This document shows, piece after piece, positions 142-48,958 of a stretch of DNA of 64,000 bases (position 1 is its first letter; each line of letters starts with the position of its first letter). Origin of the DNA: Cenarchaeum sp. (GTDB lineage: Archaea > Thermoproteota > Nitrososphaeria > Nitrososphaerales > Nitrosopumilaceae). The position numbers and the translations under genes were made by a program. The stretch lies in assembly GCA_963693095.2 (NCBI GenBank), contig OY843768.1:1-64000 (forward strand), written 5' to 3'. Below the pieces are notes generated by a model that searched no databases, was not told where the DNA came from, and saw nothing but the letters and a program-made list of their open reading frames with translations.

Positions 142-168
142 GCCGGTGCGGGCTGGCTCGCTGGCGCC

Positions 169-1268: not shown

Positions 1269-1275
1269 TTATATA
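1269..1275 (+). promoter_or_regulatory. Archaeal TATA box of the S-layer gene
   Basis: TTATATA about 28 bp upstream of ATG 1304 in a GC-rich context. Confidence 0.7.
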
Positions 1276-1303
1276 GTCATCTTGGGCACCCCTGTCCTGT
1301 AGA

Positions 1304-4300
1304 ATGTCCGGAAAGGCAGGCAAGGCAACAAGCGTTTTCCTAATGGCGATCATGGTCGCCGGGGGGCTGACATTCGCCATCCCCGGCGTGCAGCCCGTGA
1401 TGGCCCAGTCGACTAACCCCAACCTGGCCGTCTCGGCCGAGAGCACGGCCTTTGGCAACTACTTCTCCGGCCCGCAGGTCGTCGAGATCGTCATAGTGGA
1501 TCCCGCCATAGACGAGACCAACGAGGCCAAGGGTGAGCCGGACGTAAAGCTGAACGGCAAGAAGGTCAGGATGATACAGGCGACGGACGGCAAGTGGTAC
1601 GCCTACGTCGCCAACAGGGCGCAGGCCGTGCTGGCCGACGGTACTGCCGACGCCAACCCCGGCCAGGGGCTGGACTTTGGCACCATATGCCTGGACACGG
1701 GCAACGCCGATCGCGTCCTGGAGACGGCGCTGGCGGCCAACGCTGGATACTTTTCTGACACGACGGGCGTCGCCTTCCCGTTCGCGCACACGCGCGCCGA
1801 GGTCGCCGGCGGCGCCGTGACCTCTGGGCCTGCGCTGGCCTCCGTGGACGACGGGTGCTCCGAGGCCGATGTCACCGCGGCGTTCACCGAGGTGCCCGAC
1901 ACGGTGCCAACGTCCACCGCCGGCACGCTCAACTACGCCGGCGTCTCGATGAACGTCGTGCGCGAGCCCAGGGCGGTGAACACGAACAGCAACGCCGAGT
2001 TTGGCCAGAGCGTCGTCATCGATGGCGCCACCGTGACGAACGAGGACCGCGCCGGCGTGTGGCCGTTCATACAGCTCTTCGACTTCAGCCAGGGCGGCAA
2101 CGTGGAGGTCCAGTACCGCCGCGGCGGCGGCACCCAGTCCGTCACGCTCAACTACGACACCGTCGAGGACTATGCGTCCCTCTCGCTCCTGGATCGCACG
2201 ACGTTCCCCGGCGGCGGCGCGCAGGTCCACTTTGACATAACCGACACGTGGCTCAACGTGGATCCTACCGACGAGGACTCTTGGACGTGGGACGTGGAGG
2301 GTTCCGGCGAGGGCAGGGTCGTCTACCAGGCCTTTGACGAGAACGGCGTGCGCCAGGACAACAACGTGGACATATCCGCCGAGCTCTCGGGGCTGATGTG
2401 CGACACCAACTGCCTGCTAGTGCTCGACCGCGGCACCAACGGCTACGACGTCCTCGAGTACGCCGACAACGACGACAGCGGCCTGCGCCTGTTCGGCTCG
2501 ACGGCCGACGACCAGCTGATCACGGTCACCGAGACGAGCTCCTCCAGCGGCGTCTTCACGTCGTACGACGAGGATGACGATTCGGTCCTGGTCACCGCGT
2601 CGGATGACGCCACGACGACGACTGTAGTCGAGCCTCCGAGGGACACCACGGCGACCATAGACTACAACGAGACGCCGCAGAGCATCTCCATAGGATACGC
2701 CTTTGCGACCATCGACATCCAGCCGTCCGGCGACGCGTGGCTCTCCGGCCAGGAGATACCAGTCGTCCTGACTGACGCCGACGCAAACCGCAACAGCCTG
2801 GCCGACGAGGACCTCGACGTGCTGGACGCCACCCACATCATACCGACGCTCGTGACGGGCAGCCCGGTCACCCTGGCCGACGCCTCCGCAGTCGCCGTGG
2901 CCGCTGGCGTCCTGAGCACGGCCAGCGGGACTCCGTTCTCCGTCACGTTTGACAGCGCCGCCGACCCGCTCACGGTGGGTTCGGATGCGACGGATCCGTC
3001 GCTTAGGGCAACGGTGGACTCTGGCTCGTCAGACCCGATGCAGACCATGATCATAGACTACGGCACGGCCGCGTCACACCACTCCGAGGCGACGGTCACG
3101 ACGCTCTTCAACTATGACTTTGGCAACCTCGAGTTCGCCGACGGCACTGCCGCCTCTGACCAGAACGTCGACCTCTACGCGCTGGTGGGCACGGGGGCCA
3201 CGATATTTGCAAACGCGAACCTTGGCGGCGTCACGCCGTACGAGATCGAGGCCGGCGCGGCTCTAAGGGGCACGGTGGTGCTGCCCGAGGCAGCGCGCGC
3301 GCAGCTGGCTGGCGACGGCACAGGCACGTCGCTTGGCCTCATGGCGCAATTTGGGGACAGCGTTGGAGAGCCAAACGATGCCGTCATACTCATCGCCGAC
3401 GTCATGTCCTTCGGCTTCACCGACGACGGCGTCGAGTCCGGCGAGCGCATAGCCAACCAGGTGGTGCGCCTCGAGCTCGAGGAGAGCGGGGACAACACGG
3501 GCGTCTTTGAGGGCACGCTCGAGTACGCCATGGTCAACCAGCTCAGCATCGCCGACTCCTCGACGTACTCGGGCCTGGCCCTCATCGACGACGAGGCCAC
3601 GCTCATCGCGATCGAGGACCTCACCGACGAGGACACGCTCACGGTCACCTACAACGACCTCGGCCGCGACGGCGTCGTGACGCCCGTCTCGGACGACGAG
3701 GCCGCGCTGTCGCACTCGGGCACCGTCTCCCTCGACGCGACGAGCTACAAGATAGCCGACACGGTGACGGTCACGGTCCGCGACGCCGACCTCAACACGA
3801 GCTCCGACACGACGGAGGTCTACACGATACCCGACGGCGAGGACTATGTCGGCAGGGCCGACCCCGCTGACGTGGCCGACGGCACCGGCACGTACGAGGT
3901 TCTGCGCAGCTTCGGCCCGCTCGGTGTCCTCGCAGATATCACGTTTGACGACTCGCGGTGGGCCGCCGGCACGGCCGCGTGCGACCCCCGCGGGGTTCAC
4001 GGCCTGGGAGAGACGGGCTTCACGCTCCGCGAGACCTCGGCGGCCTCGGGCGTCTTTGAGGGCGACTTCCAGATACCCACGGAGTGGTGCGCGCCGGATG
4101 CGTCGGCCGCCGAGTCGGTCACCGGCCTGGACATCGAGGTGAACTATGTGGACTACCGCGACGCGTCGGGCGAGATAATCGAGGTCGGCGACGGGGCAGG
4201 CCTGCGCGCCAACACGGGCTCCGTCTCCCTTGACCGCCCAGTCTACCCAGTGCCCTTTGGCAACGCCGACAACGGGTCGGTCTTCCTGACGTACGGGACG

Positions 4301-6382: not shown

Positions 6383-6409
6383 GCCGGTGCGGGCTGGCTC
6401 GCTGGCGCC

Positions 6410-7345
6410 TTGGAAGCAGATTCTAGAAGGGGCGCCCTGCGCGGTGCCGACGCTCTGATCTTTGACTGCGACGGCGTGCTCGTCGACGTGTCTGCCTCGT
6501 ACGACGCGACGATCGCGCTGACCGTGGGGCGCCTGCTGGGCAAGCTCGGCGCGCGAGCGCGCCTCGACGTCGACCGGCCGCTGATCGAGGGCTTCAAGGC
6601 CACCGGCGGGTTCAACGACGAGGTCGACCTGGCGTACGCGGCGGTCCTGTGCGCGGTGGCCGCCGGACTCTCGGGGCGCGGCGCGCGCGGGCTGGCCGCC
6701 GGCATGTGCGCCTCGATGGGCCCCGGCGGCATCGCGGAGGCCGAGCGCCTGCTCGCGGAGGTCGCCGACATCGCGCCGGCCGTCAGGGAGCTCGCCCACC
6801 CAGGCGCGGGGAGCATGGTGAGCGCCGACTTTGACAGGATCTTTTACGGCCGGCGGCTCCGCCCGCGGCTGTTCGGCGCCGGCGAGCCGCACGGCGGGCA
6901 CGGCATGGTCGAGTCTGACGCCCTGATCGTCGACGTGGCCACGGTGCGCCTGCTGCGCGGAGTCACCGGCCGCAGGCCGGCGGTGGTCACCGGCCGCGGG
7001 CGCGCCGCCTTTGAGCACACCTTCAGGGAGCCGCTCCGATCGGGGTTTGACCTCGGCGCCTCGGCGTTCCTGGAGGACGAGCCGCGCAGCCTCGCAAAGC
7101 CTGCCCCCGAGGCGCTCGTCCGGGCGATCCGCGGCCTCGGCTGCGAGCGCGCGGTCTACGTGGGCGACTCGATGGAGGACCTGCTGATGGCCAGGGCGGC
7201 TGCGCGCTCAGGCCGCCCCGTCGCGTTCTGCGGCGTCACGGGCACCGCGGCCGACCCCGCCGCGCGGCGCCTCATGTTCGAGCGCGCCGGCGCGGAGGCG
7301 ACGGTGTGCTCGGCGGCGGACGTCGCGCCGCTGCTGCGCGCATAG
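6410..7345 (+). CDS. HAD-superfamily hydrolase, copy 2
   Basis: Identical to 169..1104. Confidence 0.9.
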   Translation: MEADSRRGALRGADALIFDCDGVLVDVSASYDATIALTVGRLLGKLGARARLDVDRPLIEGFKATGGFNDEVDLAYAAVLCAVAAGLSGRGARGLAAGMCASMGPGGIAEAERLLAEVADIAPAVRELAHPGAGSMVSADFDRIFYGRRLRPRLFGAGEPHGGHGMVESDALIVDVATVRLLRGVTGRRPAVVTGRGRAAFEHTFREPLRSGFDLGASAFLEDEPRSLAKPAPEALVRAIRGLGCERAVYVGDSMEDLLMARAAARSGRPVAFCGVTGTAADPAARRLMFERAGAEATVCSAADVAPLLRA

Positions 7346-7509
7346 GCGCAGACGCGCCGCCTGGCGGGAGTTTCTGCGACCCGGAGGCGATCACGCGCAT
7401 GGCGTGTGGAAATCCTGCGGGTTTGGCGCGATTTTCCGCGCGTTTTTGCCCACACGCCCAAATGCGTGCGGCGCGGGGGCGGATATCGCGGTCAAATCGT
7501 CCATCAGGG

Positions 7510-7516
7510 TTATATA
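7510..7516 (+). promoter_or_regulatory. TATA box of the second full S-layer copy
   Basis: Identical to 1269..1275. Confidence 0.7.
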
Positions 7517-7544
7517 GTCATCTTGGGCACCCCTGTCCTGTAGA

Positions 7545-10500
7545 ATGTCCGGAAAGGCAGGCAAGGCAACAAGCGTTTTCCTAATGGCGATCATGGTCGC
7601 CGGGGGGCTGACATTCGCCATCCCCGGCGTGCAGCCCGTGATGGCCCAGTCGACTAACCCCAACCTGGCCGTCTCGGCCGAGAGCACGGCCTTTGGCAAC
7701 TACTTCTCCGGCCCGCAGGTCGTCGAGATCGTCATAGTGGATCCCGCCATAGACGAGACCAACGAGGCCAAGGGTGAGCCGGACGTAAAGCTGAACGGCA
7801 AGAAGGTCAGGATGATACAGGCGACGGACGGCAAGTGGTACGCCTACGTCGCCAACAGGGCGCAGGCCGTGCTGGCCGACGGTACTGCCGACGCCAACCC
7901 CGGCCAGGGGCTGGACTTTGGCACCATATGCCTGGACACGGGCAACGCCGATCGCGTCCTGGAGACGGCGCTGGCGGCCAACGCTGGATACTTTTCTGAC
8001 ACGACGGGCGTCGCCTTCCCGTTCGCGCACACGCGCGCCGAGGTCGCCGGCGGCGCCGTGACCTCTGGGCCTGCGCTGGCCTCCGTGGACGACGGGTGCT
8101 CCGAGGCCGATGTCACCGCGGCGTTCACCGAGGTGCCCGACACGGTGCCAACGTCCACCGCCGGCACGCTCAACTACGCCGGCGTCTCGATGAACGTCGT
8201 GCGCGAGCCCAGGGCGGTGAACACGAACAGCAACGCCGAGTTTGGCCAGAGCGTCGTCATCGATGGCGCCACCGTGACGAACGAGGACCGCGCCGGCGTG
8301 TGGCCGTTCATACAGCTCTTCGACTTCAGCCAGGGCGGCAACGTGGAGGTCCAGTACCGCCGCGGCGGCGGCACCCAGTCCGTCACGCTCAACTACGACA
8401 CCGTCGAGGACTATGCGTCCCTCTCGCTCCTGGATCGCACGACGTTCCCCGGCGGCGGCGCGCAGGTCCACTTTGACATAACCGACACGTGGCTCAACGT
8501 GGATCCTACCGACGAGGACTCTTGGACGTGGGACGTGGAGGGTTCCGGCGAGGGCAGGGTCGTCTACCAGGCCTTTGACGAGAACGGCGTGCGCCAGGAC
8601 AACAACGTGGACATATCCGCCGAGCTCTCGGGGCTGATGTGCGACACCAACTGCCTGCTAGTGCTCGACCGCGGCACCAACGGCTACGACGTCCTCGAGT
8701 ACGCCGACAACGACGACAGCGGCCTGCGCCTGTTCGGCTCGACGGCCGACGACCAGCTGATCACGGTCACCGAGACGAGCTCCTCCAGCGGCGTCTTCAC
8801 GTCGTACGACGAGGATGACGATTCGGTCCTGGTCACCGCGTCGGATGACGCCACGACGACGACTGTAGTCGAGCCTCCGAGGGACACCACGGCGACCATA
8901 GACTACAACGAGACGCCGCAGAGCATCTCCATAGGATACGCCTTTGCGACCATCGACATCCAGCCGTCCGGCGACGCGTGGCTCTCCGGCCAGGAGATAC
9001 CAGTCGTCCTGACTGACGCCGACGCAAACCGCAACAGCCTGGCCGACGAGGACCTCGACGTGCTGGACGCCACCCACATCATACCGACGCTCGTGACGGG
9101 CAGCCCGGTCACCCTGGCCGACGCCTCCGCAGTCGCCGTGGCCGCTGGCGTCCTGAGCACGGCCAGCGGGACTCCGTTCTCCGTCACGTTTGACAGCGCC
9201 GCCGACCCGCTCACGGTGGGTTCGGATGCGACGGATCCGTCGCTTAGGGCAACGGTGGACTCTGGCTCGTCAGACCCGATGCAGACCATGATCATAGACT
9301 ACGGCACGGCCGCGTCACACCACTCCGAGGCGACGGTCACGACGCTCTTCAACTATGACTTTGGCAACCTCGAGTTCGCCGACGGCACTGCCGCCTCTGA
9401 CCAGAACGTCGACCTCTACGCGCTGGTGGGCACGGGGGCCACGATATTTGCAAACGCGAACCTTGGCGGCGTCACGCCGTACGAGATCGAGGCCGGCGCG
9501 GCTCTAAGGGGCACGGTGGTGCTGCCCGAGGCAGCGCGCGCGCAGCTGGCTGGCGACGGCACAGGCACGTCGCTTGGCCTCATGGCGCAATTTGGGGACA
9601 GCGTTGGAGAGCCAAACGATGCCGTCATACTCATCGCCGACGTCATGTCCTTCGGCTTCACCGACGACGGCGTCGAGTCCGGCGAGCGCATAGCCAACCA
9701 GGTGGTGCGCCTCGAGCTCGAGGAGAGCGGGGACAACACGGGCGTCTTTGAGGGCACGCTCGAGTACGCCATGGTCAACCAGCTCAGCATCGCCGACTCC
9801 TCGACGTACTCGGGCCTGGCCCTCATCGACGACGAGGCCACGCTCATCGCGATCGAGGACCTCACCGACGAGGACACGCTCACGGTCACCTACAACGACC
9901 TCGGCCGCGACGGCGTCGTGACGCCCGTCTCGGACGACGAGGCCGCGCTGTCGCACTCGGGCACCGTCTCCCTCGACGCGACGAGCTACAAGATAGCCGA
10001 CACGGTGACGGTCACGGTCCGCGACGCCGACCTCAACACGAGCTCCGACACGACGGAGGTCTACACGATACCCGACGGCGAGGACTATGTCGGCAGGGCC
10101 GACCCCGCTGACGTGGCCGACGGCACCGGCACGTACGAGGTTCTGCGCAGCTTCGGCCCGCTCGGTGTCCTCGCAGATATCACGTTTGACGACTCGCGGT
10201 GGGCCGCCGGCACGGCCGCGTGCGACCCCCGCGGGGTTCACGGCCTGGGAGAGACGGGCTTCACGCTCCGCGAGACCTCGGCGGCCTCGGGCGTCTTTGA
10301 GGGCGACTTCCAGATACCCACGGAGTGGTGCGCGCCGGATGCGTCGGCCGCCGAGTCGGTCACCGGCCTGGACATCGAGGTGAACTATGTGGACTACCGC
10401 GACGCGTCGGGCGAGATAATCGAGGTCGGCGACGGGGCAGGCCTGCGCGCCAACACGGGCTCCGTCTCCCTTGACCGCCCAGTCTACCCAGTGCCCTTTG

Positions 10501-12623
10501 GCAACGCCGACAACGGGTCGGTCTTCCTGACGTACGGGACGCCTGACAGGCTCTCGGCCCACAACGTGATCGTCCACGTGCGCGTCACGGACCCGGACTT
10601 TGACGTCTCGGCCTCCGGCTCGGACACGCTGGGCCAGATGGTCTCGCGCACGACCGGCGAGGGCGACGCGTACGGCCCGCTCAGGATATCCGTTCAGAGG
10701 GGATCCGACAACGTCGTCCTCGGCTACGCAGGCGGGCCGACCGCCGCGGGCGCCACTGGCACCGCGGTCGGTGACAGGGCTGTCCGCCCGCTCGCCGAGG
10801 TCTTCTCGCCCACGGTTGCGGTGCCCACGCGCGACTTCGGCTCCTCCCCTGCCATAACCGTCAACGCGGCCAACGCCATAGAGCACGGCCCGCTCACCGA
10901 GACGGCGCCGTCCTCGGGCACGTTCGAGCTCGACCTCCCGATATCGTGGGACCAGGGGCCCCCGTCGACTGACTGCCCCGGCAACTCGGCGACGTCCACG
11001 TGCATACTCCAGGGCGACATCCTCGTGGTAGAGTACACCGACCCCGCCGACGCCTCGGGCAACCCGCAGACGGTGACGGACTCGGCGACCTTTGACATGC
11101 GCAACGCGGTTCTGCGCTCGGACAAGTCAGTCTACATCATCGGCTCCGACATGATACTCACGCTCATAGAGCCGGACCTCGACCTCGACAACGACACGGC
11201 CGAGACGTACACGCTCGACCTGATAGAGTGGGACGACGACGACTCCGTCGTCACGCTGCGCAACGGCGCCTTTGACCCCGAGCCGACCTCGCTGCGCGAG
11301 ACGGGCGACTCGACGGGCATCTTCCAGGTCGTGGTGGAGATACCCGCCGAGATCACGCAGGGCGCCCGCACCGACGACCTCGAGCGCGGCGAGGAGATAG
11401 AGCTGACCTACCAGGACTGGAGCCCCGCCGGCGCCGACTATGTCGGGCAGACCGACGAGGAGATAGAGTGGTCGATATTCACGTCGGACTTTGGCGCGAC
11501 GATAGAGCTCGACCAGGCCGTCTACACGTGGACCGACAAGGTCTTCATCACCGTCGTGGCGCCGGACCACAACTTTGACAGCAACCTCATCGACGAGATA
11601 GGCGACGACCGTGATGTGGATCCGCTCCAGGTCTCCACGCGCGAGGGCGGCAGTATCCCCGGCAGCTACAGGCTCACCGAGACGGGCACCGACACGGGCA
11701 TATTCAGCGGCGAGGTCATACTCACGGGCTTCACGCACGACGCCGACGGCGACGGCAGCACGGGCACCAACGGCAACGACCGGCTCACCCTCCCGGCGGC
11801 CGGCAGGGGCCCGACTGACGGGACCATAGCGGCCGACGACGACGACGGCATCACCGTCTCGTACGAGTACAACGACGACGAGCACGTCATAGGCTCGGCC
11901 CTCATACGCTGGAACGTCGGCGACACGCAGTGGCTCGAGGCCAGCTACCCGGCGTCCGGCTCGGGCGTCGTCAGGGTCGTCGACCCCGACATGAACTGGA
12001 ACCCCGAGGCGGTAGACAACTTTGAGGTCGACGTCTACTCGGACGCCGACGCCGGCGGCATAAACCTCACGGTCACCGAGACGCAGGAGGCCTCGGGCAT
12101 CTTCGAGGGCACCGTCATCTTCACGCTGACCGACCAGTCATCGGGCCACCGCCTCAGGGTCGCCGAGGGCGACACCGTGACTGCCCGCTATGACGACAAC
12201 ACCCTGCCCGACCCCTACACGCGCAACGACGAGCTAGAGGTGGAGGGCACCACGATAATCGGCACGCTCGTGCCCCCGCTGGAGAGGGCCGTCGTGAGCA
12301 ACGTGAGGCTGACGGACAACTCGGGCAACCCGCTCGACACCGTCGCCATAGGCCAGCAGGTCCAGGTGACCGGCCAGGTCACGAGCGGCCAGGAGACCGA
12401 GCAGGCCTACGCCTACCTCGTGCAGGTCAACGACTCGAGCGACGTCACGCTCTCGCTCACGTGGACCAGCGGCACGCTCAACGCGGGCCAGTCGCTCACG
12501 CCCTCAATGTCCTGGCAGCCCACGGTGGCCGGCGACTACACTGCGACGGTATTCGTCTGGGAGTCCATCGACAACCCCACGGCGCTCTCGCCGCAGGCCG
12601 AGCTGCCCTTCACGGTCGGCTAG
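7545..12623 (+). CDS. S-layer protein, second full copy
   Basis: Identical to 1304..6382. Confidence 0.9.
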   Translation: MSGKAGKATSVFLMAIMVAGGLTFAIPGVQPVMAQSTNPNLAVSAESTAFGNYFSGPQVVEIVIVDPAIDETNEAKGEPDVKLNGKKVRMIQATDGKWYAYVANRAQAVLADGTADANPGQGLDFGTICLDTGNADRVLETALAANAGYFSDTTGVAFPFAHTRAEVAGGAVTSGPALASVDDGCSEADVTAAFTEVPDTVPTSTAGTLNYAGVSMNVVREPRAVNTNSNAEFGQSVVIDGATVTNEDRAGVWPFIQLFDFSQGGNVEVQYRRGGGTQSVTLNYDTVEDYASLSLLDRTTFPGGGAQVHFDITDTWLNVDPTDEDSWTWDVEGSGEGRVVYQAFDENGVRQDNNVDISAELSGLMCDTNCLLVLDRGTNGYDVLEYADNDDSGLRLFGSTADDQLITVTETSSSSGVFTSYDEDDDSVLVTASDDATTTTVVEPPRDTTATIDYNETPQSISIGYAFATIDIQPSGDAWLSGQEIPVVLTDADANRNSLADEDLDVLDATHIIPTLVTGSPVTLADASAVAVAAGVLSTASGTPFSVTFDSAADPLTVGSDATDPSLRATVDSGSSDPMQTMIIDYGTAASHHSEATVTTLFNYDFGNLEFADGTAASDQNVDLYALVGTGATIFANANLGGVTPYEIEAGAALRGTVVLPEAARAQLAGDGTGTSLGLMAQFGDSVGEPNDAVILIADVMSFGFTDDGVESGERIANQVVRLELEESGDNTGVFEGTLEYAMVNQLSIADSSTYSGLALIDDEATLIAIEDLTDEDTLTVTYNDLGRDGVVTPVSDDEAALSHSGTVSLDATSYKIADTVTVTVRDADLNTSSDTTEVYTIPDGEDYVGRADPADVADGTGTYEVLRSFGPLGVLADITFDDSRWAAGTAACDPRGVHGLGETGFTLRETSAASGVFEGDFQIPTEWCAPDASAAESVTGLDIEVNYVDYRDASGEIIEVGDGAGLRANTGSVSLDRPVYPVPFGNADNGSVFLTYGTPDRLSAHNVIVHVRVTDPDFDVSASGSDTLGQMVSRTTGEGDAYGPLRISVQRGSDNVVLGYAGGPTAAGATGTAVGDRAVRPLAEVFSPTVAVPTRDFGSSPAITVNAANAIEHGPLTETAPSSGTFELDLPISWDQGPPSTDCPGNSATSTCILQGDILVVEYTDPADASGNPQTVTDSATFDMRNAVLRSDKSVYIIGSDMILTLIEPDLDLDNDTAETYTLDLIEWDDDDSVVTLRNGAFDPEPTSLRETGDSTGIFQVVVEIPAEITQGARTDDLERGEEIELTYQDWSPAGADYVGQTDEEIEWSIFTSDFGATIELDQAVYTWTDKVFITVVAPDHNFDSNLIDEIGDDRDVDPLQVSTREGGSIPGSYRLTETGTDTGIFSGEVILTGFTHDADGDGSTGTNGNDRLTLPAAGRGPTDGTIAADDDDGITVSYEYNDDEHVIGSALIRWNVGDTQWLEASYPASGSGVVRVVDPDMNWNPEAVDNFEVDVYSDADAGGINLTVTETQEASGIFEGTVIFTLTDQSSGHRLRVAEGDTVTARYDDNTLPDPYTRNDELEVEGTTIIGTLVPPLERAVVSNVRLTDNSGNPLDTVAIGQQVQVTGQVTSGQETEQAYAYLVQVNDSSDVTLSLTWTSGTLNAGQSLTPSMSWQPTVAGDYTATVFVWESIDNPTALSPQAELPFTVG

Positions 12624-12627
12624 GCAG

Positions 12628-16805: not shown

Positions 16806-16823
16806 GGGGGGGGGGGGGGGGGG
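16806..16823. repeat. Poly-G tract (G18)
   Basis: Counted directly. Confidence 0.9.
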
Positions 16824-22790: not shown

Positions 22791-23642
22791 ATCGCAATCC
22801 AGATCGCAACACAATGGCAGGCATTGTAGAGTATAGCGTCGTGTTGTCAAACCGCTGCCCTGTACGAAAAGTAGACAGGGCATTGTGTGCCTGCAGGGCA
22901 CAGATCAGGGAGGGCTCGCTCGGGGTTTTCCGGGGCGGGCCAGTCTCGGGTTCTGGGTGGTGCCCCCCGGCGAGTCGCGCGCGCTCGCCGGGGATCCGCC
23001 CCCAATAAAGGCCAAAACGGGCCTGTATTGGCCATTTCGGGCCCTATATGCCCCGCCCTTGGTGGCCGCCTATGGCGTCTATTTGGGGTTTTACGGAATC
23101 TCAGTTTCGGGGAATGTGGACGAAATTACGGCGCCGGCTAGGCGTGAGCAGGGCCCAGATTATGTCAAAGTATAAAGAAGGATTCCGTATAGGGGGGTGC
23201 GTTGGCCATGAAATCTAATCGCCCAATCCCAATGCTCGCTGACAATGAAAAGACCATAGAGTTCCTCGTAAAGAGGGTCGGCGATGACCCAGAAAAGCTA
23301 ACGGAGATCAGGGAATGGGGCCAAAAACGCCAGGTTCGAATCGAAAGGCTCTGCGGCTTTGCCGGATTCCTGCAGAAAAACGACATTCTCGATATCGACG
23401 GCAAGGAGATGAGCAGGATCGCATTCGAGTTTGCCTTTCACCAATGTGTCGCCATAGCTAGCAAGCACGGCTTTGACATGGAATACACGTTCAACGACAG
23501 CGAGTTCGGCCCACTGGCAGCAGCCCTGACCACTGACATTCATGCAGTGAGGCCCAACAGGTCAATAGAGGGGATATTTGGGAGCGTGGATAACGAGGCG
23601 GGCTTTTTGGAGGCCGTTGCGGGCAAGAGTCCTGACGAGCTA

Positions 23643-24742
23643 TACTGACGAGCAAAAGTTCGTGCCATGATCAAACTTTCCCGACCCGCATGCTATATGG
23701 ATCGCCCCTCCCCACGCCCCGCATGGAAGGCCAAGAGCTGGAAGCGTTCCGCAGGGCACTCCGCGACGAGAGGGACGGCGACGTCAGGTACAGGTTTGCC
23801 GCGGTCAACATGCACGAGAACCGGGGGATGACGCGCGAGGAGATCGCACTTGCGCTCGTGCAGTGCCCCAGGTGGGTCGGCAAGTGGGTCGCGCGCTACC
23901 GGAGTGGCGGTGTCGAGGCCCTGCGGGACCGCCCCCGCCCCGGCAGGCCGCCGCTGGTCGCGCGGCAGAAGCTTGGCCGCCTGATTGGCCGAATGCCCGG
24001 GCGCGTCACGCCCGCAGAGGTCATGCTGGAGATCGAGCGGGCCGCCGGCGTGAGGTTCCACATGTCGCACGTCAGGAAAATAATGCGCAGGGCCGGCCTC
24101 TCCGCCAAGCGGACGCGCCTGGTGCACGTGAACAGGGCCGACGGGCCGACTGTCGCCGGCTGGCGGCGCCGGGTGCGGCGCGAGATAAGGCGCCTCAGGC
24201 GCGCGGGATTCACCATCGTAGTGCAGGACGAGACCATCGCCGTGCACGGCGCAGCCGACGGATCAAAGTACTGGTCGCGCGTGGGCGTCCCCGTCGTCGC
24301 CCCGTACACCGGGGGACACAGGAGGGTCGTGGTGTACGGCGCGATCTCCACTGACGGGAAGCAGATCTTCCGGGTGCACGACAGGTTCGATGCGGAGACG
24401 TTTGTCGCGTTCCTGCGCGACATGCACAGGAAGTTCGGCAGGGTCGCCGTGATCGTCGACAGGGCGCCGCAGCACAGGGCCGCGGCGGTGAAGGACTATC
24501 TTCGCGCCCACAGGGCGGTGAGGCTGATCGAGCTGCCCACCGGCTCGCCGTACCTCAACGCGATCGAGGAGGTGTGGCGGCAGGCAAAGCGGGCGCTGCT
24601 GGTCTCCGAGCACTACCCCACCATGGGGGAGATGCGGACGGCGGTGTCACGGCACTTCAGGCACACGAGGTACCGGCTCGACGTGATGGCATACCTGGGC
24701 CGGACGTCGCTGGAATGCGGCACGGACTTTTGATCGGCAGTA
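23643..24742 (+). mobile_element. IS630-family insertion sequence
   Basis: TIRs TACTGACGAGCAAAAGTTCGTGCC / GGCACGGACTTTTGATCGGCAGTA; TA duplicated at 23641-42 and 24743-44. Confidence 0.93.
23690..24733 (+). CDS. IS630-family transposase
   Basis: HTH region with RPGRP; DDE motifs VQDET, IVDRAPQH and SPYLNAIEEVW. Confidence 0.93.
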   Translation: MLYGSPLPTPRMEGQELEAFRRALRDERDGDVRYRFAAVNMHENRGMTREEIALALVQCPRWVGKWVARYRSGGVEALRDRPRPGRPPLVARQKLGRLIGRMPGRVTPAEVMLEIERAAGVRFHMSHVRKIMRRAGLSAKRTRLVHVNRADGPTVAGWRRRVRREIRRLRRAGFTIVVQDETIAVHGAADGSKYWSRVGVPVVAPYTGGHRRVVVYGAISTDGKQIFRVHDRFDAETFVAFLRDMHRKFGRVAVIVDRAPQHRAAAVKDYLRAHRAVRLIELPTGSPYLNAIEEVWRQAKRALLVSEHYPTMGEMRTAVSRHFRHTRYRLDVMAYLGRTSLECGTDF

Positions 24743-24907
24743 TAGGTGAGCTGGCCAGGGAGCTAGTTATAGAAGAGGCCCATCGCATGATCATCCTGCC
24801 ACAGCGATAGATCGCAATCCAGATCGCAACACAATAGCAGCATAAAGTATAACGCCGTGTTGTCAAACCGTCGCAAGTTTTTTTAGTCGGGGCAATATCG
24901 CCCCGCC

Positions 24908-33299: not shown

Positions 33300-33650
33300 T
33301 AGCTCCTACTACCCACACGCTCGTTTCTCCACACACTGTTTTTCCTGTCCACCCATGTGCTTCTTGAAAGCCAGCAAAGGCATCTCCCGGCAGTCCGTGT
33401 CCAGCAAGAAATGGAGCCATCTCTCGTAGTGCCTGACGAACTTGTTGGCCACGCCAAAGTGTTTAATTTTACGCTCGGACGTCTGGAACACCTCAATCTC
33501 ACCACACGTCTGATGGATGACACGCGACATGGCGTACGATATCTCGCACCTGAGCTCTCGCCCAAGAGGGGCTACAGAGTTTAGCTCTTGCGGCAGATAC
33601 CGCGTTTATCTCGCTTGAACTGTGTCCGGTGATCAGAGAGTATGTACCCC
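33300..33650 (-). pseudogene. Decayed IS481 transposase remnant
   Basis: MSRVIHQTCGEIEVFQT...LHFLLD...PLLAFKK aligns with the C-terminus of 36478..37527. Confidence 0.7.
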
Positions 33651-33816
33651 ACACAAGACACACTCCCGCTTGCTATTCATTCAACAAAACAACCGCCAAT
33701 TCGAATAACGTATTTAAGAGGATGTACTGCGTAGCCTTCTGATGGCCGTGGAATGGTACGTTAAGCGTGCCTGCGTGCGCAGTTCGCACACATGCATTGG
33801 CAAAGATAAAATATCT

Positions 33817-34976
33817 ATGACAACTAGGGGCGTCTCGGCGTCTCGGCGTCTCGGCGTCTCGGCGTCTCGGCGTCTCGGCGTCTCGGCGTCTCGGCGTCTC
33901 GGCGTCTCGGCGTCTCGGCGTCTCGGCGTCATACTAGAGTAAAATCACGTCAATCATGCACGCTAAGGTCACATTATTCAAAAACAGATCATACCAAAAA
34001 TTTAAATAAACGTAAAGCACGTAGCACCTCAAACGAGAAATCTCGTTCTCCTAAAAAAGCTGCTAGGTTTAAGTTCGTTGATCTGTTTTGTGGAATTGGC
34101 GGATTTCATATTGCAGCAAAAGAATTTGGAGGTGAATGTGTTATGGCTTGTGACATAGATGAAAAAGTTAGAATGGCGTATGAGGCAAATTATGGAATAA
34201 TGCCGCTGGGTGATATATCTCATATTAAAAATTCAGATGTGCCAAATCATGATTTTTTGTTTGCTGGTTTTCCTTGTCAGCCATTTAGTATACTTGGTAT
34301 GCAAAAAGGATTTAAAGATGAACGTGGTATATTATTTTTTGAGATTCTTAAATTTTTAAAGACACAAAAACCACGATTTGCTCTTTTAGAAAATGTCAAA
34401 CAACTGGCTACTCATAATGACGGAAAAACAATAAAAGAAATAACATCTGCGTTGGAAAAAATAGGATACATTCCTATTGTGGCTATTCTTAATGCTCTTG
34501 ATTACGGACTTCCACAAAAAAGAGAACGAACATTAATTGCATGTTTTAAAAATAAACGAGATGCGCAAAAAGCACAATTTCCCCCACACCCATCAACTCG
34601 TAAATATTCATTAAATAATATACTTGAAACTAAAGTGGATTCAAAACACTATGCTAGTGATTATATTGTCAAAAAAAGAAAATCTACTCATCAATCAAAA
34701 TATTATCCAAGTATTTGGCACGAAAACAAAGGTGGCAACATCGGAAGCCATCCTTACGCTTGTGCTCTTAGAGCTGGCGCATCTTACAATTATTTACTGG
34801 TAAATGGTGAACGGAGACTCACACCACGTGAAATGCTGCGATTACAGGGATATCCTGATAGTTTCAAAATCGTGTGTAACGATTCAGCGACACGACGGCA
34901 AGCTGGGAATTCTGTGCCTGTTCCGATGATTGAGGCTGCGATTGGAGGTATGTTAAATGAAGAAACCACGCCTTAG
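33817..34976 (+). CDS. dcm: C5-cytosine DNA methyltransferase (type II), frameshifted within a simple sequence repeat (putatively phase-variable, OFF state)
   Basis: Motif I FVDLFCGIGGF (about 34074-34106) lies upstream of the track start at 34143. Also has GFPCQPFS, ENVK, PQKRER and QAGNSV. The TRD WHENKGGN...ALRAGASYNYLLVNG recalls M.HaeII/M.NgoBI. Confidence 0.88.
33829..33930 (+). repeat. Simple sequence repeat (GGCGTCTC) x12.75
   Basis: 102 bp perfect 8-mer tract starting 12 bp after ATG 33817. Confidence 0.97.
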
Positions 34977-35763
34977 GAACAGTTCAAAAAAATTTCATGA
35001 TCCTGATTTGCTCCACGATACGCGAGGAGAAATAATGCGACCTCCACGATTAAAAAGTAAACCGGACGCTGATCACACATGGCCATATGATTGTGATGAC
35101 ATTCCTGATGAATTAATTTATGAGTTTTCAGAAAAACTTCTTCATATGTATTATATTGGAAAAAATGATATTACAGGCTCTGAATGGGACACAATATTTG
35201 CCAAATCTATTGGTGGCAAACAAATGAAAAGTCCAGTGGGTCATGCAGATGTAATTAAAGATAATTGCGCATGGTCAGTAAAAACAGTGAAATGTCTTAA
35301 ACCACATACTGCAGATAGTATTCGAATTATTTCGGGAAGGAATTCGCCTCAATTTTCATATGGTAATATCGATTCCACAGATAATCAGGCTATGGGCAAC
35401 ATGGTTCTTGGAATATGGAATGCACGTGTCAAAGAAGCAAAACAAAAATACCCAAATGGGTTACATACATCAATTATGGTTCGTAATATGGACAAAATGC
35501 AATTTACATATTTTGAGCTTGAATCATTAGAATATCTGTCACATAAATATATCTGGAAACAAAACAACCGTAACAATTTAGAAGGATATGACCAGGATGG
35601 CAATCATATATTTACATGGCAGCCACATGGCGGTCAATTTACTATTATCTATAAAATTCCAAAATCCGCTAAAAAATTTTCTATGAAAAAAATTAAACAG
35701 ATTAGACTTGAGGATTTAATTAAAGACAAGATTGAATTATCTTGGATCAAAATGGAAAAATAG
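34957..35763 (+). CDS. Putative type II restriction endonuclease
   Basis: Overlaps the MTase end, shares its low GC, and has a PD-(D/E)XK-like segment ADV...WSVKT. Confidence 0.75.
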   Translation: MKKPRLRNSSKKFHDPDLLHDTRGEIMRPPRLKSKPDADHTWPYDCDDIPDELIYEFSEKLLHMYYIGKNDITGSEWDTIFAKSIGGKQMKSPVGHADVIKDNCAWSVKTVKCLKPHTADSIRIISGRNSPQFSYGNIDSTDNQAMGNMVLGIWNARVKEAKQKYPNGLHTSIMVRNMDKMQFTYFELESLEYLSHKYIWKQNNRNNLEGYDQDGNHIFTWQPHGGQFTIIYKIPKSAKKFSMKKIKQIRLEDLIKDKIELSWIKMEK

Positions 35764-35995
35764 ATCATATTGCATTTTTACTATTGATAACATAAATAAT
35801 GAATCACTATTTTAGAAACCAATCTAAATTGGTTATTTTATTCTAAAACACAGGGCATATTATAAACGATTAATTTGATCTTTAGATAATGTATCCTAGA
35901 AATGCCGTATGTGATAAATCGTTTGATGCTTTAGAAATGCTCCTTGTCCATTCTCCTTATTTACTTTATATTATACATACATACGGTGCGTCTCT

Positions 35996-36406
35996 GTGAG
36001 CAAACCTGCCTCGAGATCACACATGTGTCCCCACGGCTCGCTCGCTGCCACATGGGCTGCACGCGTTGATGACTGGATTGATGACGGCTCGAGGATAGTC
36101 AGGCTCTCAATGAAGCATCGGCGCAACTATAGGGCGACTGTCTGCACAAGGTGCCCACACGAGCAGCAGGTTCGGCGCAAGTGCTCGGCCCTGACGCCCG
36201 GATGCGACAAGAAATCGTGCGCGCACATGGATCGCGCATTCTATTCAAAGCACCGTAACCTCATCATGGCGCACATTGACTCACATCCGCTCTCGCAGCG
36301 CCTCCGCATGAACGCCGCGCTTGATGACAGTCCTGTTGATGCCACACACAACTCGCCGCAGGCAGCCCCTGGTAAGTCAGAGGGCGCAGAGTCTGCCTCC
36401 CACTGA
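35996..36406 (+). CDS. Cys-rich hypothetical protein, paralog of 48560..48958
   Basis: CTRCPHEQQVRRKCSALTPGCDKKSCAH is nearly identical in both copies. Confidence 0.7.
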   Translation: MSKPASRSHMCPHGSLAATWAARVDDWIDDGSRIVRLSMKHRRNYRATVCTRCPHEQQVRRKCSALTPGCDKKSCAHMDRAFYSKHRNLIMAHIDSHPLSQRLRMNAALDDSPVDATHNSPQAAPGKSEGAESASH

Positions 36407-36453: not shown

Positions 36454-37545
36454 TGTTTTATACGAAAAGTAGTGGAGTCAATCATTCGAGTCCACCTCCA
36501 TCCACCTCGGGTTCTCCGCCCTGACCCTCCCGTCGGCCCTGCGCCTCCTGAAGGCCAGCAGGGGCGTCTCGCCACCCTTGATGTCCAGGGCGAAGTGGAG
36601 GCGCCTCTCGTTGTAGTATGCGATGAACTCGGGGACCCCGCCAAAGTGGCCGATTTCGGCCTCGAGCGTCTGGAAGAACCTCTCGACCTTGCCGTTGGTC
36701 TGGGGGTGGCGGACGCGCGCCATGAGGTGCGCCATGTCGCGGTCCAGCAGCTCCTGCTCGAAGAGCGTCGGCGTCCAGCTGCGGCTCGGCGTGCCGCGCC
36801 TGGTCGCCGTGAACTGCGTGCCGTGATCCGAGAGCACCTGCGCCGGCGCGCCAAATGTCTTGATTGCCTTTCGCAGCACCATCACCGTGTTGGCCGACGT
36901 GGCCGCGGCGAACACGCCAAAGCCCGTGACGCACCGCGACGCGTCGTCGAGGAACACGACGAGGTGCGCGCCCCTCAGCGGCCCGTATTTCATTATGTGC
37001 CAGTCCACGTGCCACATCGCGTTGGAGTGCGCGCGCTCGAACCGCACCCACTTGCGCCTGCGGGACTTTGCCCGCGACCTCGTTACGAGCCCCTCCGCCA
37101 GCATGATGCGGTACACCGACCAGTACGTTATTTTTGAGTTGTTGCCGCGCAGCCCCTCGGCCACGCGCACGACGCCGGCCGGCCGGTCGGAGTGCTCGGC
37201 GAGAACCTCGGCCACCTCGCCGTCGGTGACGTCCCTGCGCGGCCTCCCCATCGGCCGCGGCTCCGGCGGCGCGCCGGTCCGCCGGCAGTGCGCGCGCAGC
37301 TCGTATGCCCATGATTGGGAAATCCCGAGATCCCCGGCAACCTCCCTGGCGCTCCGGGTCTCCAGCGTCCTGGCCACGTACCGGAGAGCCCGGCCGTCCA
37401 GCCTCCTGACCGGCATGGCGCGCCGGCGGCGGAGTCCCTCAAACGTGTGTTTCGGCAGCCTGCCGGACCCGGCGGCCCTCCGTGGGCTCCCGGATCTGCG
37501 CCAGGCAGGCATTCCTGCCCACTCCACTACTTTTCGTACAAGGCA
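36454..37545 (-). mobile_element. IS481-family insertion sequence with a 15-bp direct repeat
   Basis: 25-bp TIRs TGTTTTATACGAAAAGTAGTGGAGT / TGCCTTGTACGAAAAGTAGTGGAGT; AAACTATCATTTGGC on both sides. Confidence 0.92.
36478..37527 (-). CDS. IS481-family (rve/DDE) transposase; true start probably near 37416
   Basis: WHVDW, FLDDASR, LSDHGTQF and HPQTNGKVERFF. Confidence 0.92.
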   Translation of the reverse strand: MEWAGMPAWRRSGSPRRAAGSGRLPKHTFEGLRRRRAMPVRRLDGRALRYVARTLETRSAREVAGDLGISQSWAYELRAHCRRTGAPPEPRPMGRPRRDVTDGEVAEVLAEHSDRPAGVVRVAEGLRGNNSKITYWSVYRIMLAEGLVTRSRAKSRRRKWVRFERAHSNAMWHVDWHIMKYGPLRGAHLVVFLDDASRCVTGFGVFAAATSANTVMVLRKAIKTFGAPAQVLSDHGTQFTATRRGTPSRSWTPTLFEQELLDRDMAHLMARVRHPQTNGKVERFFQTLEAEIGHFGGVPEFIAYYNERRLHFALDIKGGETPLLAFRRRRADGRVRAENPRWMEVDSND

Positions 37546-37659: not shown

Positions 37660-38880
37660 ATGCCTCGTGAGGACGACGGAGCAGGGCGCCCTGTCGGCGG
37701 CGTATATGAGAGGATTGAGGGCGGACATACGTTCGTCCCCGATCCAATGCCGCCCAGGCTTGTGCATACCGGCGATATAGATGACGAGACGATCAACGAC
37801 AAGATTCAGCTGGCCATGATGGAGATCGGCCGACTCGACATGGCCGGCAGTCTCATCGGCGGCGCATTTGTGCGCACCGTGCCGTACCTGGCCCGCGAGG
37901 CCGTGGCGAGCTCGATGATCGAGGGCACAAGCACGACGATCAACGACCTGTTTAGGCACAGGGTTCTCAAGGACATCAGCGACGAGGAGGCCAAGCGAAT
38001 AAAGCTAAAGGAGGTTGACAATAACGCGCGTGCACTAGTGGAAACCCTTGGCGCAGTGGGCAAGACAGAGCCAATAAGCCTAGACCTCATCAAACGCGCG
38101 CATAGGATGCTCTTTGATGGAGTGGAGACATACCCTGACAAGTTTATGCCTGGCGAGTTTAGGACAGTCCAAAACCACATAGGCGGCAAGAGTGTGACTG
38201 ATGCGACATATGTGCCGCCCCCACCTGACATGGTGGAACCACTTATGCAAAACCTTGTTGCATATATCGAGAGTGCCAAGGGACCTGCATCATCACTAGT
38301 ACGCTGCGCAGTCGCACATTATCAGTTCGAGGCCATACACCCGTTTCCCGATGGCAATGGAAGGGTCGGACGACTCCTTATTCTTCTGATGATGCGCAGG
38401 TATGGGCTGCTCAACACGCCGGTCTTGAACATAAGCAGATACCTGCTTCGAAAACGCTCAACATACTATGCCATGCTACGAGCGCCACGTGAACATGGTG
38501 GATGGGCACAATGGATTGCATTCTTTGTTGATGCGTGCAAGGAACAGGCTCAAACAGGGCTGTCTGGAATGCGACAACTAGACGATCTGTATCATGAATA
38601 TCGTGAACGCCTAGATCGTATAACTAGAAGCTCCAATGCAGTGGCAGTCGTTGACACCCTTGTCGAAAACCCGTATGTCACCATACCCGTTATACAACGC
38701 ATTACCAAACTCACACATGCCGGTGCGGCCGACCTGGTTCGTAGGCTAGTAAAGGCCAACATACTCACAAGCGTGTCGACCCACTCTAGGATTCGCCTAT
38801 ATGCCGCCTTTGAGATCCTTGACATCCTCAAATCCAGAGATGCTGAGGATGAGCCTGATGCCACACGGCCTGCGGCATAG
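37660..38880 (+). CDS. fic: Fic-domain protein (class II, C-terminal HTH)
   Basis: Active-site motif HPFPDGNGRVGR; N-terminal inhibitory motif SSMIEG. Confidence 0.92.
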   Translation: MPREDDGAGRPVGGVYERIEGGHTFVPDPMPPRLVHTGDIDDETINDKIQLAMMEIGRLDMAGSLIGGAFVRTVPYLAREAVASSMIEGTSTTINDLFRHRVLKDISDEEAKRIKLKEVDNNARALVETLGAVGKTEPISLDLIKRAHRMLFDGVETYPDKFMPGEFRTVQNHIGGKSVTDATYVPPPPDMVEPLMQNLVAYIESAKGPASSLVRCAVAHYQFEAIHPFPDGNGRVGRLLILLMMRRYGLLNTPVLNISRYLLRKRSTYYAMLRAPREHGGWAQWIAFFVDACKEQAQTGLSGMRQLDDLYHEYRERLDRITRSSNAVAVVDTLVENPYVTIPVIQRITKLTHAGAADLVRRLVKANILTSVSTHSRIRLYAAFEILDILKSRDAEDEPDATRPAA

Positions 38881-45804: not shown

Positions 45805-47320
45805 GTATGAGGTCAGCACCTAGACCGCACGCATGACCTCCTCGACCACGCTCTTCCCCATGGCCCTCCACGTCAGGAAGCACGTCAGGAGGATAGACAT
45901 GCGCCTGGCAGCCGGCGCGCCCCCCTTGAGCTGGCCGCTCACCTTGCGGCGCACGACCACGTCGCGCAGCTCCCTCTCGGCGGCGTTGTTCGTGGGCGCG
46001 ACGCCGGCGTGCTCGCAGAACGCGAACATCTGCGGCGCGGCGCGGCGGAGCCTGGCCACGGCGCGCGCCAGCTCCCAGCCCCCGCCGTCGTCGTGCCGGT
46101 CCAGCAGCGACGCCAGGGCGTCCTCCATCGCGCGCCGCAGCTCCGCGCACGGCGCGACGGCGGTGTCCCTGGCGGCGCGGTACAGCGAGAGGAGGTCGGC
46201 GTGCAGCCCGGGCAGCGCCCCGCCGTGCATCCTGGCGGCGTGCTCCACGGCGCGCAGCTCGTGCGCCCAGCACCGCTGGTGCATCCCGCCGGCGTCGAAC
46301 CTGTTGTACGCCGGGTGCCCGTCGGTTATCACCACGCCTTCGTACCCTGGGAGTATCACGTCGAGCACCTGCGCGCCCCTGCTCTTGCTGAACTCCAACC
46401 CGACACGGTTCCCGCCCGTCGCCAGCCACATCCAGTGGCCCTCGCCGGAGCTTGGGAACCCCGTCTCGTCCACGTGCACGTGCGACGCCCTCCTGATCTC
46501 CGCCCATATGCGCTCGGCCTCCGGCTCCAGCGCGTCGGCCACGTTGTCCCTTATGCGCAGCACGGTCGCCTTTGACATGGAGACCCCGTGCACTTCCAGC
46601 ATCTCGGCGGCGATCCGCTCGACGGGCGTCCGAGTGCGCACGGACGACGCCACGGTGCCGACGAGCCTCCTGCCGTAGGACCCGCGGGCCGGCAGGCCGG
46701 AGTCCGCCCGCCGCGTCGCGCCGCAGTCCGCGCACGTGGCCGACTCGACATAGTGCCGCGTCTCGACCGGCCGCGGGGGCGGGATCTCGATGATGTCGCG
46801 CACCGCCGTCGTGACCTCCATGCGGCCGCCGCACTCGCACGGCCCGCGGTCGACGCGGTGCCGCTCCGTCCCCGTCGGCGCGTGCCGGCGCGACGTGCCG
46901 CGGTGGCCGGGCCTGCCGCCGGGCGTCCCGTGCGGCGGGAGCTCGCCGCGCTCCCTCGCCCGCCGCAGCTCGCGCTTCCTCCTCTTGTGCTCCAGCGACG
47001 CCGACGACGGCGGCGTGTTGGCGTTCTGGTAGTACGACAGCGTGCGCCTCATCGCCTCTACCTCCGCCTCCAGCTCGGCGATCCTCTCGTCCCTCGACCT
47101 GACGGTGTCCTCCAGCCCGTGGACCTCCCCCTGCAGCTCCTTGACCTGCAGGCCCAGCGCCCTGGAGATCCCCTCGACGGCCCTGAGCCTGCCATTGAGC
47201 TGTGCCAGCGTGCTGTCCTGCTTCCCGCGACCCCTCACGCCCCGGCGCGCGCCCCAGCGGTAAATGGATCGGTAGGATCGCGCCTATTTGACCAAATGGG
47301 CAGGGGTGCTGACCTCATAC
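45805..47320 (-). mobile_element. IS66-family element, single-ORF type
   Basis: Perfect 16-bp TIR GTATGAGGTCAGCACC; 8-bp target duplication CAGCCTTG at 45797-45804 and 47321-47328. Confidence 0.93.
45820..47238 (-). CDS. tnpC: IS66-family transposase
   Basis: N-terminal coiled coil, NTPPSS, Zn finger, HVDETG, QRCWAH and PTNNAAERELR. Confidence 0.93.
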   Translation of the reverse strand: MRGRGKQDSTLAQLNGRLRAVEGISRALGLQVKELQGEVHGLEDTVRSRDERIAELEAEVEAMRRTLSYYQNANTPPSSASLEHKRRKRELRRARERGELPPHGTPGGRPGHRGTSRRHAPTGTERHRVDRGPCECGGRMEVTTAVRDIIEIPPPRPVETRHYVESATCADCGATRRADSGLPARGSYGRRLVGTVASSVRTRTPVERIAAEMLEVHGVSMSKATVLRIRDNVADALEPEAERIWAEIRRASHVHVDETGFPSSGEGHWMWLATGGNRVGLEFSKSRGAQVLDVILPGYEGVVITDGHPAYNRFDAGGMHQRCWAHELRAVEHAARMHGGALPGLHADLLSLYRAARDTAVAPCAELRRAMEDALASLLDRHDDGGGWELARAVARLRRAAPQMFAFCEHAGVAPTNNAAERELRDVVVRRKVSGQLKGGAPAARRMSILLTCFLTWRAMGKSVVEEVMRAV

Positions 47321-47374
47321 CAGCCTTGCGGCACACAACTTAAAACCCGTTTATCCCACGCGCGAGCCTGCGCA

Positions 47375-48559: not shown

Positions 48560-48958
48560 TCATCTGTGATCTTTGTGGCCTGCCTTGGTCGTCTGCGGCG
48601 GGCCGCTCGTGGCGTCATCAGGACTGTCATCTAGCGCGGCGTTCATGCGGATGCGCTGCGAGAGCGGGTGCGAGTCAATGTGCCCCATGATGAGGTTGCG
48701 GTACTTTGAATAGAATGCGCGATCCATGTGCGCGCAGGATTTCTTGTCGCATCCGGGTGTCAGGGCAGAGCACCTGCGCCGAACCTGCTGCTCGTGCGAG
48801 CACTTTGTGCATATGGTCGCCCTATAGTTGCGCCGATGCTCCTCCGAGAGCCTGACGAACTTTTGGCCGTCATCAATCCAGTCATCAACGCGCATGGCCC
48901 ATGCGGTGGCGATAGGGCCGTGGGGCACGCGCGTGATCTCGAGACGGTGTTTGCCCAC
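48560..48958 (-). CDS. Cys-rich hypothetical protein, paralog of 35996..36406
   Basis: High similarity to 35996..36406. Confidence 0.7.
   Translation of the reverse strand: MGKHRLEITRVPHGPIATAWAMRVDDWIDDGQKFVRLSEEHRRNYRATICTKCSHEQQVRRRCSALTPGCDKKSCAHMDRAFYSKYRNLIMGHIDSHPLSQRIRMNAALDDSPDDATSGPPQTTKAGHKDHR

Follow-up and report, generated by a model that had tools for sequence, protein, structure and literature searches.

Phase variation by slipped-strand mispairing is regarded as a form of bacterial bet-hedging, mostly of host-adapted pathogens, and the defining feature of a phasevarion is its regulon. The locus described here belongs to an archaeon. It consists of a perfect octamer tract, (GGCGTCTC)12.75, a C5 cytosine DNA methyltransferase (methylase) frame that runs through it, and a neighboring gene that resembles those of restriction endonucleases. 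The tract probably acts as a slipped-strand contingency switch that turns on and off the methylase gene of a presumed Type II restriction-modification cassette, which is the best reading mainly because of its genome context. Coordinates refer to the window, the whole stretch of DNA analyzed, which covers the opening 64 kb of contig 1 in a Cenarchaeum sp. genome of 2,003,945 bases (two contigs, 1,976,240 + 27,705; 60.4% G+C). The archaeal host proposed in the preliminary description of the window is supported by an archaeal small-subunit (SSU) rRNA model, which matches the genome with 1457.6 bits across all 1478 positions, and by an archaeal large-subunit (LSU) match beside it.

Described counterparts are found in mycoplasmas. 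Passages of PMC9465063 describe CpG (5-methylcytosine, m5C) methylases of Mycoplasma agalactiae, M. pulmonis and M. crocodyli with a poly(G) or poly(GA) tract immediately ahead of the catalytic domain; fragment-length analysis there shows variation. Like the window locus, these are C5 methylases with a slippery tract a short way before the catalytic domain, where a frame change truncates or restores the product. In that partial account, the Mycoplasma enzymes are bacterial, mostly solitary and equipped with mono- or dinucleotide tracts of demonstrated variation. The window methylase, in contrast, has an archaeal host, an 8-base unit, a tract in place of its natural N-terminus and an apparently intact nuclease gene behind it. 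The dcm8/dam3 gene of Metamycoplasma hominis, with 6–12 TA repeats in the relevant section of PMC10305163, is likewise a Type II methylase gene in which repeat number sets a full-length or truncated product, but that section presents it as bacterial, with a dinucleotide unit and a fused two-methylase protein.

Phasevarions, as outlined in parts of a 2025 review, include the repeat-switched Type III mod genes of Haemophilus and Neisseria, and Type I systems are also repeat-switched (PMC11868660). As far as those parts describe them, the mod phasevarions share with the window a repeat whose unit is not a triplet, placed in the 5′ part of a methylase coding sequence and translated into a low-complexity N-terminal stretch, with one frame in three ON. 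The two Type III mod-res pairs with poly-G/C tracts found in this genome are a further likeness to the Haemophilus and Neisseria systems. The two types differ in what an OFF state entails. Type III restriction needs Mod, so OFF is safe, whereas in a Type II pair the nuclease acts alone.

The preliminary description had regarded repeat switching of a Type II m5C enzyme as undescribed. For bacteria this has to be given up in view of the Mycoplasma enzymes (PMC9465063, in the passages on CpG methylases), but for archaea it stands as far as full-text literature searches reach, since these found no archaeal repeat-switched methylase. In the sections concerned, two surveys of restriction-modification in archaea mention phase-variable systems solely with reference to bacteria (PMC10609329, PMC11033074), a statistical analysis of short homopolymers took in 18 archaeal genomes (PMC2831843), and the 2025 review names the extension of phase-variation surveys to archaea as future work (PMC11868660). 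What would be new here is that a mechanism known from bacteria operates in an archaeal host. Its octamer unit is unusual, it would act on a Type II m5C methylase that has exchanged its natural start for the repeat, and it belongs with many other repeat-tagged defense and surface genes across the genome; for the switch itself, we consider this likely rather than assured. If true, archaea would have here their first phase-variable methylases and possibly also their first phasevarions, and the strategy would cross domains despite different replication and repair machinery. One could then examine in a concrete case whether switchable methylation serves archaea in gene regulation or in changing their resistance to viruses. 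It would also raise, in sharp form, the question of how a Type II methylase is switched off without death by its own nuclease.

The octamer tract and the methylase frame

The tract occupies 33829–33930 on the plus strand and is a perfect non-triplet simple sequence repeat, the proposed switch. Tandem Repeats Finder reports period 8, 12.8 copies, 100% matches and a score of 204. The two-unit 16-mer occurs 11 times, always inside the tract, against a mean of 0.01 in 100 dinucleotide-preserving shuffles, none of which reached 11, and the tract is the sole site with at least three units in the whole genome. Its composition is host-like (62.5% G+C), and a single strand of it folds better than 200 of 200 shuffles (z −3.46).

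The protein encoded behind the tract is complete in its catalytic core. It matches PF00145 over profile positions 1–319 of 324 (2.2e-80; 271 bits, cut-off 22), TIGR00675 with 264 bits (cut-off 100.65) and the PADLOC Type II methyltransferase profile at 7.6e-99. FCGIGGF, GFPCQPFS, ENV, QKRER and GNSVPV are all present, which we take to be motifs I (FxGxG), IV (PCQ), VI (ENV), VIII (QxRxR) and X (GNSV). The best solved relative is M.HhaI (3.6e-62, 213.7 bits), a GCGC enzyme with which it shares fold and motif order. This match reflects a common core, because two other methylases of the genome score 208.7 and 226 bits against M.HhaI; with three methylases scoring alike, GCGC specificity was rejected as a deduction from the likeness. 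The 34,076 occurrences of GCGC in the genome (observed/expected 1.23) show that the site is not avoided, a count that would be informative only if GCGC were the target. The closest paralogues, which would be the candidates for a back-up methylase of the same specificity, are 35–36% identical.

The methylase frame (33828–34976, plus strand, 382 codons) is shut just 5′ of the tract by TAG 33825–33827. Its first canonical start, ATG 34143, lies past motif I, and the assembled 12.75-unit allele has no ATG, GTG or TTG between that TAG and motif I. ATG 33742 and ATG 33817–33819 share another frame, which reads through the tract and ends at TAA 33940–33942; this OFF-state frame (33742–33942, plus strand) is a 66-amino-acid (aa) open reading frame (ORF) with no family match in Pfam or NCBIfam. 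The third frame is shut right after the tract by TAG 33935–33937. Together the two stops (33935–33942, plus strand) close both non-methylase frames within 12 nt of the repeat, and the methylase frame continues open through 46 A+T-rich codons from the tract to motif I.

The consequences of a change in unit number follow from this geometry. In an in-silico series of 8–17 full units, ORFs of 375–424 aa with motifs I and IV appear at 8, 11, 14 and 17 units (4 of 10 lengths, with period 3), and the remaining 6 give ORFs of only 33–75 aa. The methylase thus shows features by which phase-variable loci are recognized, namely a long perfect non-triplet repeat in or just before the coding region and a unit change that toggles between full-length and truncated products. 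A start codon before motif I is lacking in the assembled 12.75-unit allele and present with 8, 11, 14 or 17 units. The preliminary description had given the tract, the frame stop at 33940–33942, the methylase frame open to 34976, TAG 33825 and the missing start before motif I just as they are found here, and its arithmetic, by which losing one unit or gaining two turns the gene ON, is borne out by the series.

ATG 33742 is the better placed of the two possible starts. A candidate archaeal promoter, recognized by reading the letters, lies at 33702–33719 (plus strand) and comprises an A-rich stretch resembling a transcription factor B recognition element together with TATTTAAG, which at 33711–33718 is centered ~27 nt 5′ of ATG 33742. 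Across 890 ATG-started ORFs of this genome, A+T content peaks at −33 to −24 (0.47–0.55 vs ~0.40), and the same ORFs show no strong Shine-Dalgarno peak. Given the spacing of TATTTAAG, the genome-wide A+T peak and the lack of a marked Shine-Dalgarno signal, a leaderless transcript beginning at ATG 33742 is plausible.

In the proposed switch, a cassette of a type common on phage contigs would have been acquired horizontally, its methylase without a start of its own, and host-like DNA would supply the promoter, ATG 33742 (or 33817) and the octamer tract. Slipped-strand mispairing in replication would add or remove 8-base units; archaeal PolB and PolD slip on repeats in vitro, according to part of PMC4134008. 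One frame in three (8, 11, 14 or 17 units) would lead into the methylase, giving 383–408 aa at 11 units with an N-terminal repeat-encoded GVSASRRL tail, and the other two would stop 5–12 nt past the tract. The assembled 12.75 units would represent an OFF state, one unit from ON. The preliminary description had likewise envisaged ON/OFF switching in an archaeon. The architecture on which that idea was built is real, and the idea gains strong indirect support from genome context, while changes in tract length, the use of ATG 33742 and a defense or regulatory role for switching are what we infer from it.

The same region could in principle yield the methylase whatever the length of the tract, the repeat merely tuning its level. 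The routes to this would be a +1 shift or one-base change from the ORF at ATG 33956, initiation at a non-canonical codon, or transcription beginning in or after the tract. We regard this as improbable. ATG 33956 opens a 17-codon ORF in the third frame (33956–34009, plus strand) and could compete as a start after the loss of a single base from an A5 run, of which two lie between it and its stop. Its position 40 codons before motif I is compatible with the N-terminal tails of homologues, which span 3 to ~85 residues, and ATAAAATA at 33807–33814 could set a transcription start inside the tract. Tract-independent expression would also explain how an intact nuclease is tolerated. However, no Shine-Dalgarno site precedes ATG 33956, a known slippery motif is likewise lacking, five A make a short run for slippage, and all four public sequencing runs with the locus match the window over 33994–36000 with at most one differing letter, three of them from 33901. 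The route is moreover closed at a second methylase locus of the genome, where a TGCC repeat abuts motif I.

Repeat-tagged genes elsewhere in the genome

The design of the octamer locus recurs at this second C5 methylase (C1:1746317–1747405, minus strand; locus L243, 318–1406), which matches PF00145 at 6e-92 and is 35% identical to the first. Here (TGCC)34.75 stands one codon before motif I. The methylase frame is shut by a TGA immediately 5′ of the tract and has no start ahead of motif I, the TTG start belongs to another frame, and a 208-aa ORF follows. Losing one TGCC unit or gaining two joins start and enzyme, as at the octamer locus. These are the only two of the genome's eight C5 methylase matches without a start before motif I, by a test in which the motif-I pattern matched in five and the other three were judged by eye. 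A long repeat lies within 450 nt upstream in 3 of the 8, and G12 is found ~220 nt before a third C5 methylase.

A whole-genome survey of perfect repeats returned 15 poly-G/C tracts of 10–21 bases and two triplet-compatible arrays, besides the multi-base repeats (TGCC)34.75, (CGCCGCAA)17, (CCAGAGCG)7.9 and, on contig 2, (TCGGAGC)8.9. The positions of the long repeats are not random. Type III mod genes, of which there are two (PADLOC 7e-138 and 1e-114; mod-res pairs at C1:143054–148321 and C1:281041–285134), are each followed by a ResIII gene and contain or begin with a C11 or G11 tract that interrupts the frame or stands ahead of it; a GmrSD gene has C11 just before its ATG. Paralogous ResIII ORFs of 1556 and 1560 aa (C1:707261–712112; C2:2040–6885) are preceded, 110–122 nt upstream, by 8- and 7-base repeats. 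Seven ORFs of ~1000 aa carry poly-G/C tracts of 10–21 at or near their 5′ ends. Pfam families are found in three of them, Big_5 in two (one below cut-off) and a DUF4344 metallopeptidase in one, and we count about seven of these ORFs as large surface-protein genes.

These genes tentatively point to a multi-locus repeat 'phasome' as in Haemophilus, Neisseria or Campylobacter, a broader proposal that we hold with some doubt. At least six defense genes and ~7 large surface-protein genes would then be under slippage control, the defense genes being two Type II m5C methylases, two Type III mod genes, the GmrSD gene and two giant helicase-nucleases. Two foreign m5C cassettes would have been rebuilt in the process, their own starts swapped for a host start plus repeat.

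Two further repeats were noted in the course of the survey. G18 at window 16806–16823 lies 116 nt into a 255-codon open frame with no Pfam match; small ORFs paralogous to this one recur across ~13–33 kb of the window, and the family is also present at four further sites in the genome. The (CGCCGCAA)17 array at C1:1790912–1791047 lies inside a 117-aa ORF, and its adjoining sequence is 69% identical to an element in the window that resembles an insertion sequence (IS).

The nuclease-like partner and the island

The restriction-endonuclease-like gene (34957–35763, plus strand) is an ORF from ATG 34957 whose homologues align from ATG 35035. Among 1288 candidates, 1162 are relatives at E ≤ 0.001, mostly of ~243 aa. 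In an alignment with 34 of these, all begin at residue 27 (ATG 35035) and 36 columns are invariant, including D98, S107 and K109; the window protein retains every invariant residue of this 35-sequence alignment. It has no match in Pfam, NCBIfam, PADLOC or PDB sequences and none among plasmids, and a search of phages gave one unannotated record. Its AlphaFold2 model has a mean predicted local distance difference test (pLDDT) score of 87.5. An exhaustive VIA-align search placed only restriction endonucleases or Hjc resolvases in the top 12, led by 3ndh_B (Z 9.0, root-mean-square deviation 5.0, 168 aligned), which is the only match above Z 8, below which a score can mean merely a common arrangement; other top matches were HinP1I (Z 6.9), NaeI, MspI, NhoI, EcoRV, SfiI, BglI, NlaIV and SwaI. 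Foldseek found no match to the model in pdb at E ≤ 0.001. The model suggests a fold like that of PD-(D/E)XK restriction enzymes.

The preliminary description had the nuclease gene overlap the methylase and raised translational coupling as a means of silencing it. The overlap holds only if the nuclease starts at ATG 34957, whereas the 34 aligned homologues start at ATG 35035. Coupling is not needed, as each start has its own ribosome-binding site, GGAGG 34944–34948 before ATG 34957 and GAGGAG 35024–35029 before ATG 35035. RNA structure at the junction lends coupling no support and was rejected as its basis, the fold of 34900–35070 being less stable than 190 of 200 shuffles (z +1.38). A 7-bp helix (UGGAGGU/ACCUCCA) around the second nuclease start is without statistical support.

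Relatives on viral contigs show what the cassette ordinarily looks like. The nuclease relative is encoded at 24 viral-contig loci, and at 23 of them it adjoins a 47–62% identical methylase relative, which is immediately upstream and co-oriented in 20 cases and divergent in 3; the remaining locus begins only 78 nt before the nuclease match. Because the methylase adjoins the nuclease in 23 of 24 cases, the pair is a conserved two-gene cassette, which would most simply be a Type II restriction-modification system. In all 20 co-oriented relatives the methylase has an in-frame start 1–101 codons before the match, and none of the 23 methylase-bearing relatives has a repeat of unit ≥2 bases, although one has T9. 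The ordinary phage-contig cassette thus has a normal methylase start shortly before motif I and no repeat. The window copy differs on both counts and represents the derived form.

The methylase body and the nuclease gene form a low-G+C island (33931–35985; ~27–45% vs ~60% for the genome), which starts at the last base of the octamer tract, the tract and the DNA to its left being host-like in composition. At its right edge, GCGTCTC (35988–35994, plus strand) repeats 7 of the 8 letters of the GGCGTCTC unit directly before GTG 35996, and the octamer repeat may have grown from a duplicated target. The 136-aa gene from GTG 35996 is matched by a paralogue at 48593–48958 and by a homologue in the complete genome G004, which is from the same genus, with homology starting at the start codon. 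A DNA search of 60 related genomes found no match to the island or its left flank; only IS and the right-flank gene matched.

This setting also fits a cassette that was dead on arrival, that is, a recent phage-type insertion whose methylase start was lost at the junction, whose repeat is a by-product of the duplicated target and whose genes are silent or decaying. Consistent with such a history are the ~32% G+C of the island in a 60% genome, the repeat exactly at one island edge with the 7/8 copy at the other, the ordinary methylase starts of the cassette relatives, the OFF consensus tract length, and an rve transposase gene with many IS copies nearby. We consider it rather unlikely. The methylase frame has stayed open over its 46 A+T-rich codons where the other two close at once, and all methylase catalytic motifs and all nuclease invariant residues are kept. 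The layout of start, repeat and motif I at the second, unrelated methylase is, in addition, hard to get twice by accident. The slipped-strand switch remains the reading that we prefer.

Several other features of the window deserve mention. Three repeated elements lie at 23637–24750, 45805–47347 and 36454–37541. One has ten other genome copies (97.6–99.5%) and another has three (97.4–99.5%), and the third contains an rve-type integrase core, with copies 82–83% identical. A Fic/DOC family protein is encoded at 37660–38880 (PF02661 1e-21, with Fic_N), just past the IS that adjoins the island. Positions 1–6384 are 100% identical to 6242–12625 (period 6241), either a perfect tandem duplication or an untrimmed contig start. 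A search of the window against Rfam gave no match.

Tract length in relatives and public runs

Comparison with relatives indicates that repeats of this kind change in length. Three orthologous repeat loci were compared with G004, and two differ: the heptamer (CTCCGAG) before the helicase-nuclease gene has 8.9 copies here vs 17.7 in G004 (locus L290), with conserved flanks, and G21 here corresponds to G17 there. A genome of another genus has 10-base repeats, of five and three copies, equivalently placed before its two helicase-nuclease copies. Runs of at least 12 G occur in 40 of 151 family genomes, a set that includes the unpublished G116, and are concentrated in genera g1, g2, g14 and g18. 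The presence of poly-G tracts in 40 of the 151, mainly in four or five genera, suggests that the habit belongs to the lineage.

For the octamer tract itself, depth in the four public runs provides an estimate of unit number. The ratio of the 38-nt repeat unitig to the island contig is 9.1, 9.2, 9.1 and 8.9, where a 102-nt tract predicts 9.0 and one unit more or fewer would predict 10.0 or 8.0. This argues, if softly, against a miscount and against a large ON fraction. The possibility concerned is that the assembled count is wrong by one or two units and the methylase simply ON in the sequenced culture, the tract still being a potential switch. Tandem repeats are often mis-sized in assemblies, as a passage on Mycoplasma states (PMC9465063), and an ON methylase would resolve the paradox of the intact nuclease. 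We nevertheless give this explanation very little weight, as the ratios of 8.9–9.2 lie close to 9.0, an agreement softened by G+C bias.

A number of observations weigh against the contingency switch. No length heterogeneity of the GGCGTCTC tract was seen in the four public runs with the locus, which are contigs from one study that all end inside the tract; none of these runs is recorded as RNA. Their depth ratios against the left flank scatter (6.9, 8.7, 2.7 and 8.3), and the depth argument is soft because of this scatter and of G+C bias. The C11 of the first mod gene, the third orthologous locus, has the same length here and in G004. No long upstream repeat was found at 29 C5-methylase loci from the family's other genomes (one of them from G116), three of which have A8/T8, and with 0 of 29 the repeat design is not conserved beyond this genome. 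At the poly-G/C loci ON/OFF calls are unreliable because homopolymer lengths in assemblies are error-prone. The island is unameliorated at about 32% G+C, and its intact motifs may reflect recency rather than selection.

The most serious difficulty concerns the nuclease. The consensus tract is OFF while the nuclease-like gene keeps all invariant residues and its own ribosome-binding sites, a combination that is expected to be harmful unless something explains its tolerance. If the nuclease were a four-base cutter, at GCGC for example, it would face 34,076 targets. The paradox might be resolved if the early stop caused transcriptional polarity, as would be expected from work on Thermococcus operons, if a methylase encoded elsewhere gave protection, if the island were silent, or if the units had been miscounted.

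In run X3 (window 33300–33994), the left-flank contig has a depth of 474 vs 140 for the island (3.4x), 33931–33993 is without cover, and the island contig stops at 33994 rather than 33901. Scans for at least three units of GGCGTCTC found 94 stretches in genome contigs and 118 in metagenome contigs, mostly of high-G+C bacteria and with up to 16 units; in blastn and tblastn comparisons, none of these loci matched the window flanks, the methylase or the nuclease gene. The tract has 16 units in a Paracoccus genome (locus L100), 11 in Clavibacter (L077) and 11 in Sorangium (L089), at loci that showed no relation to that of the window.

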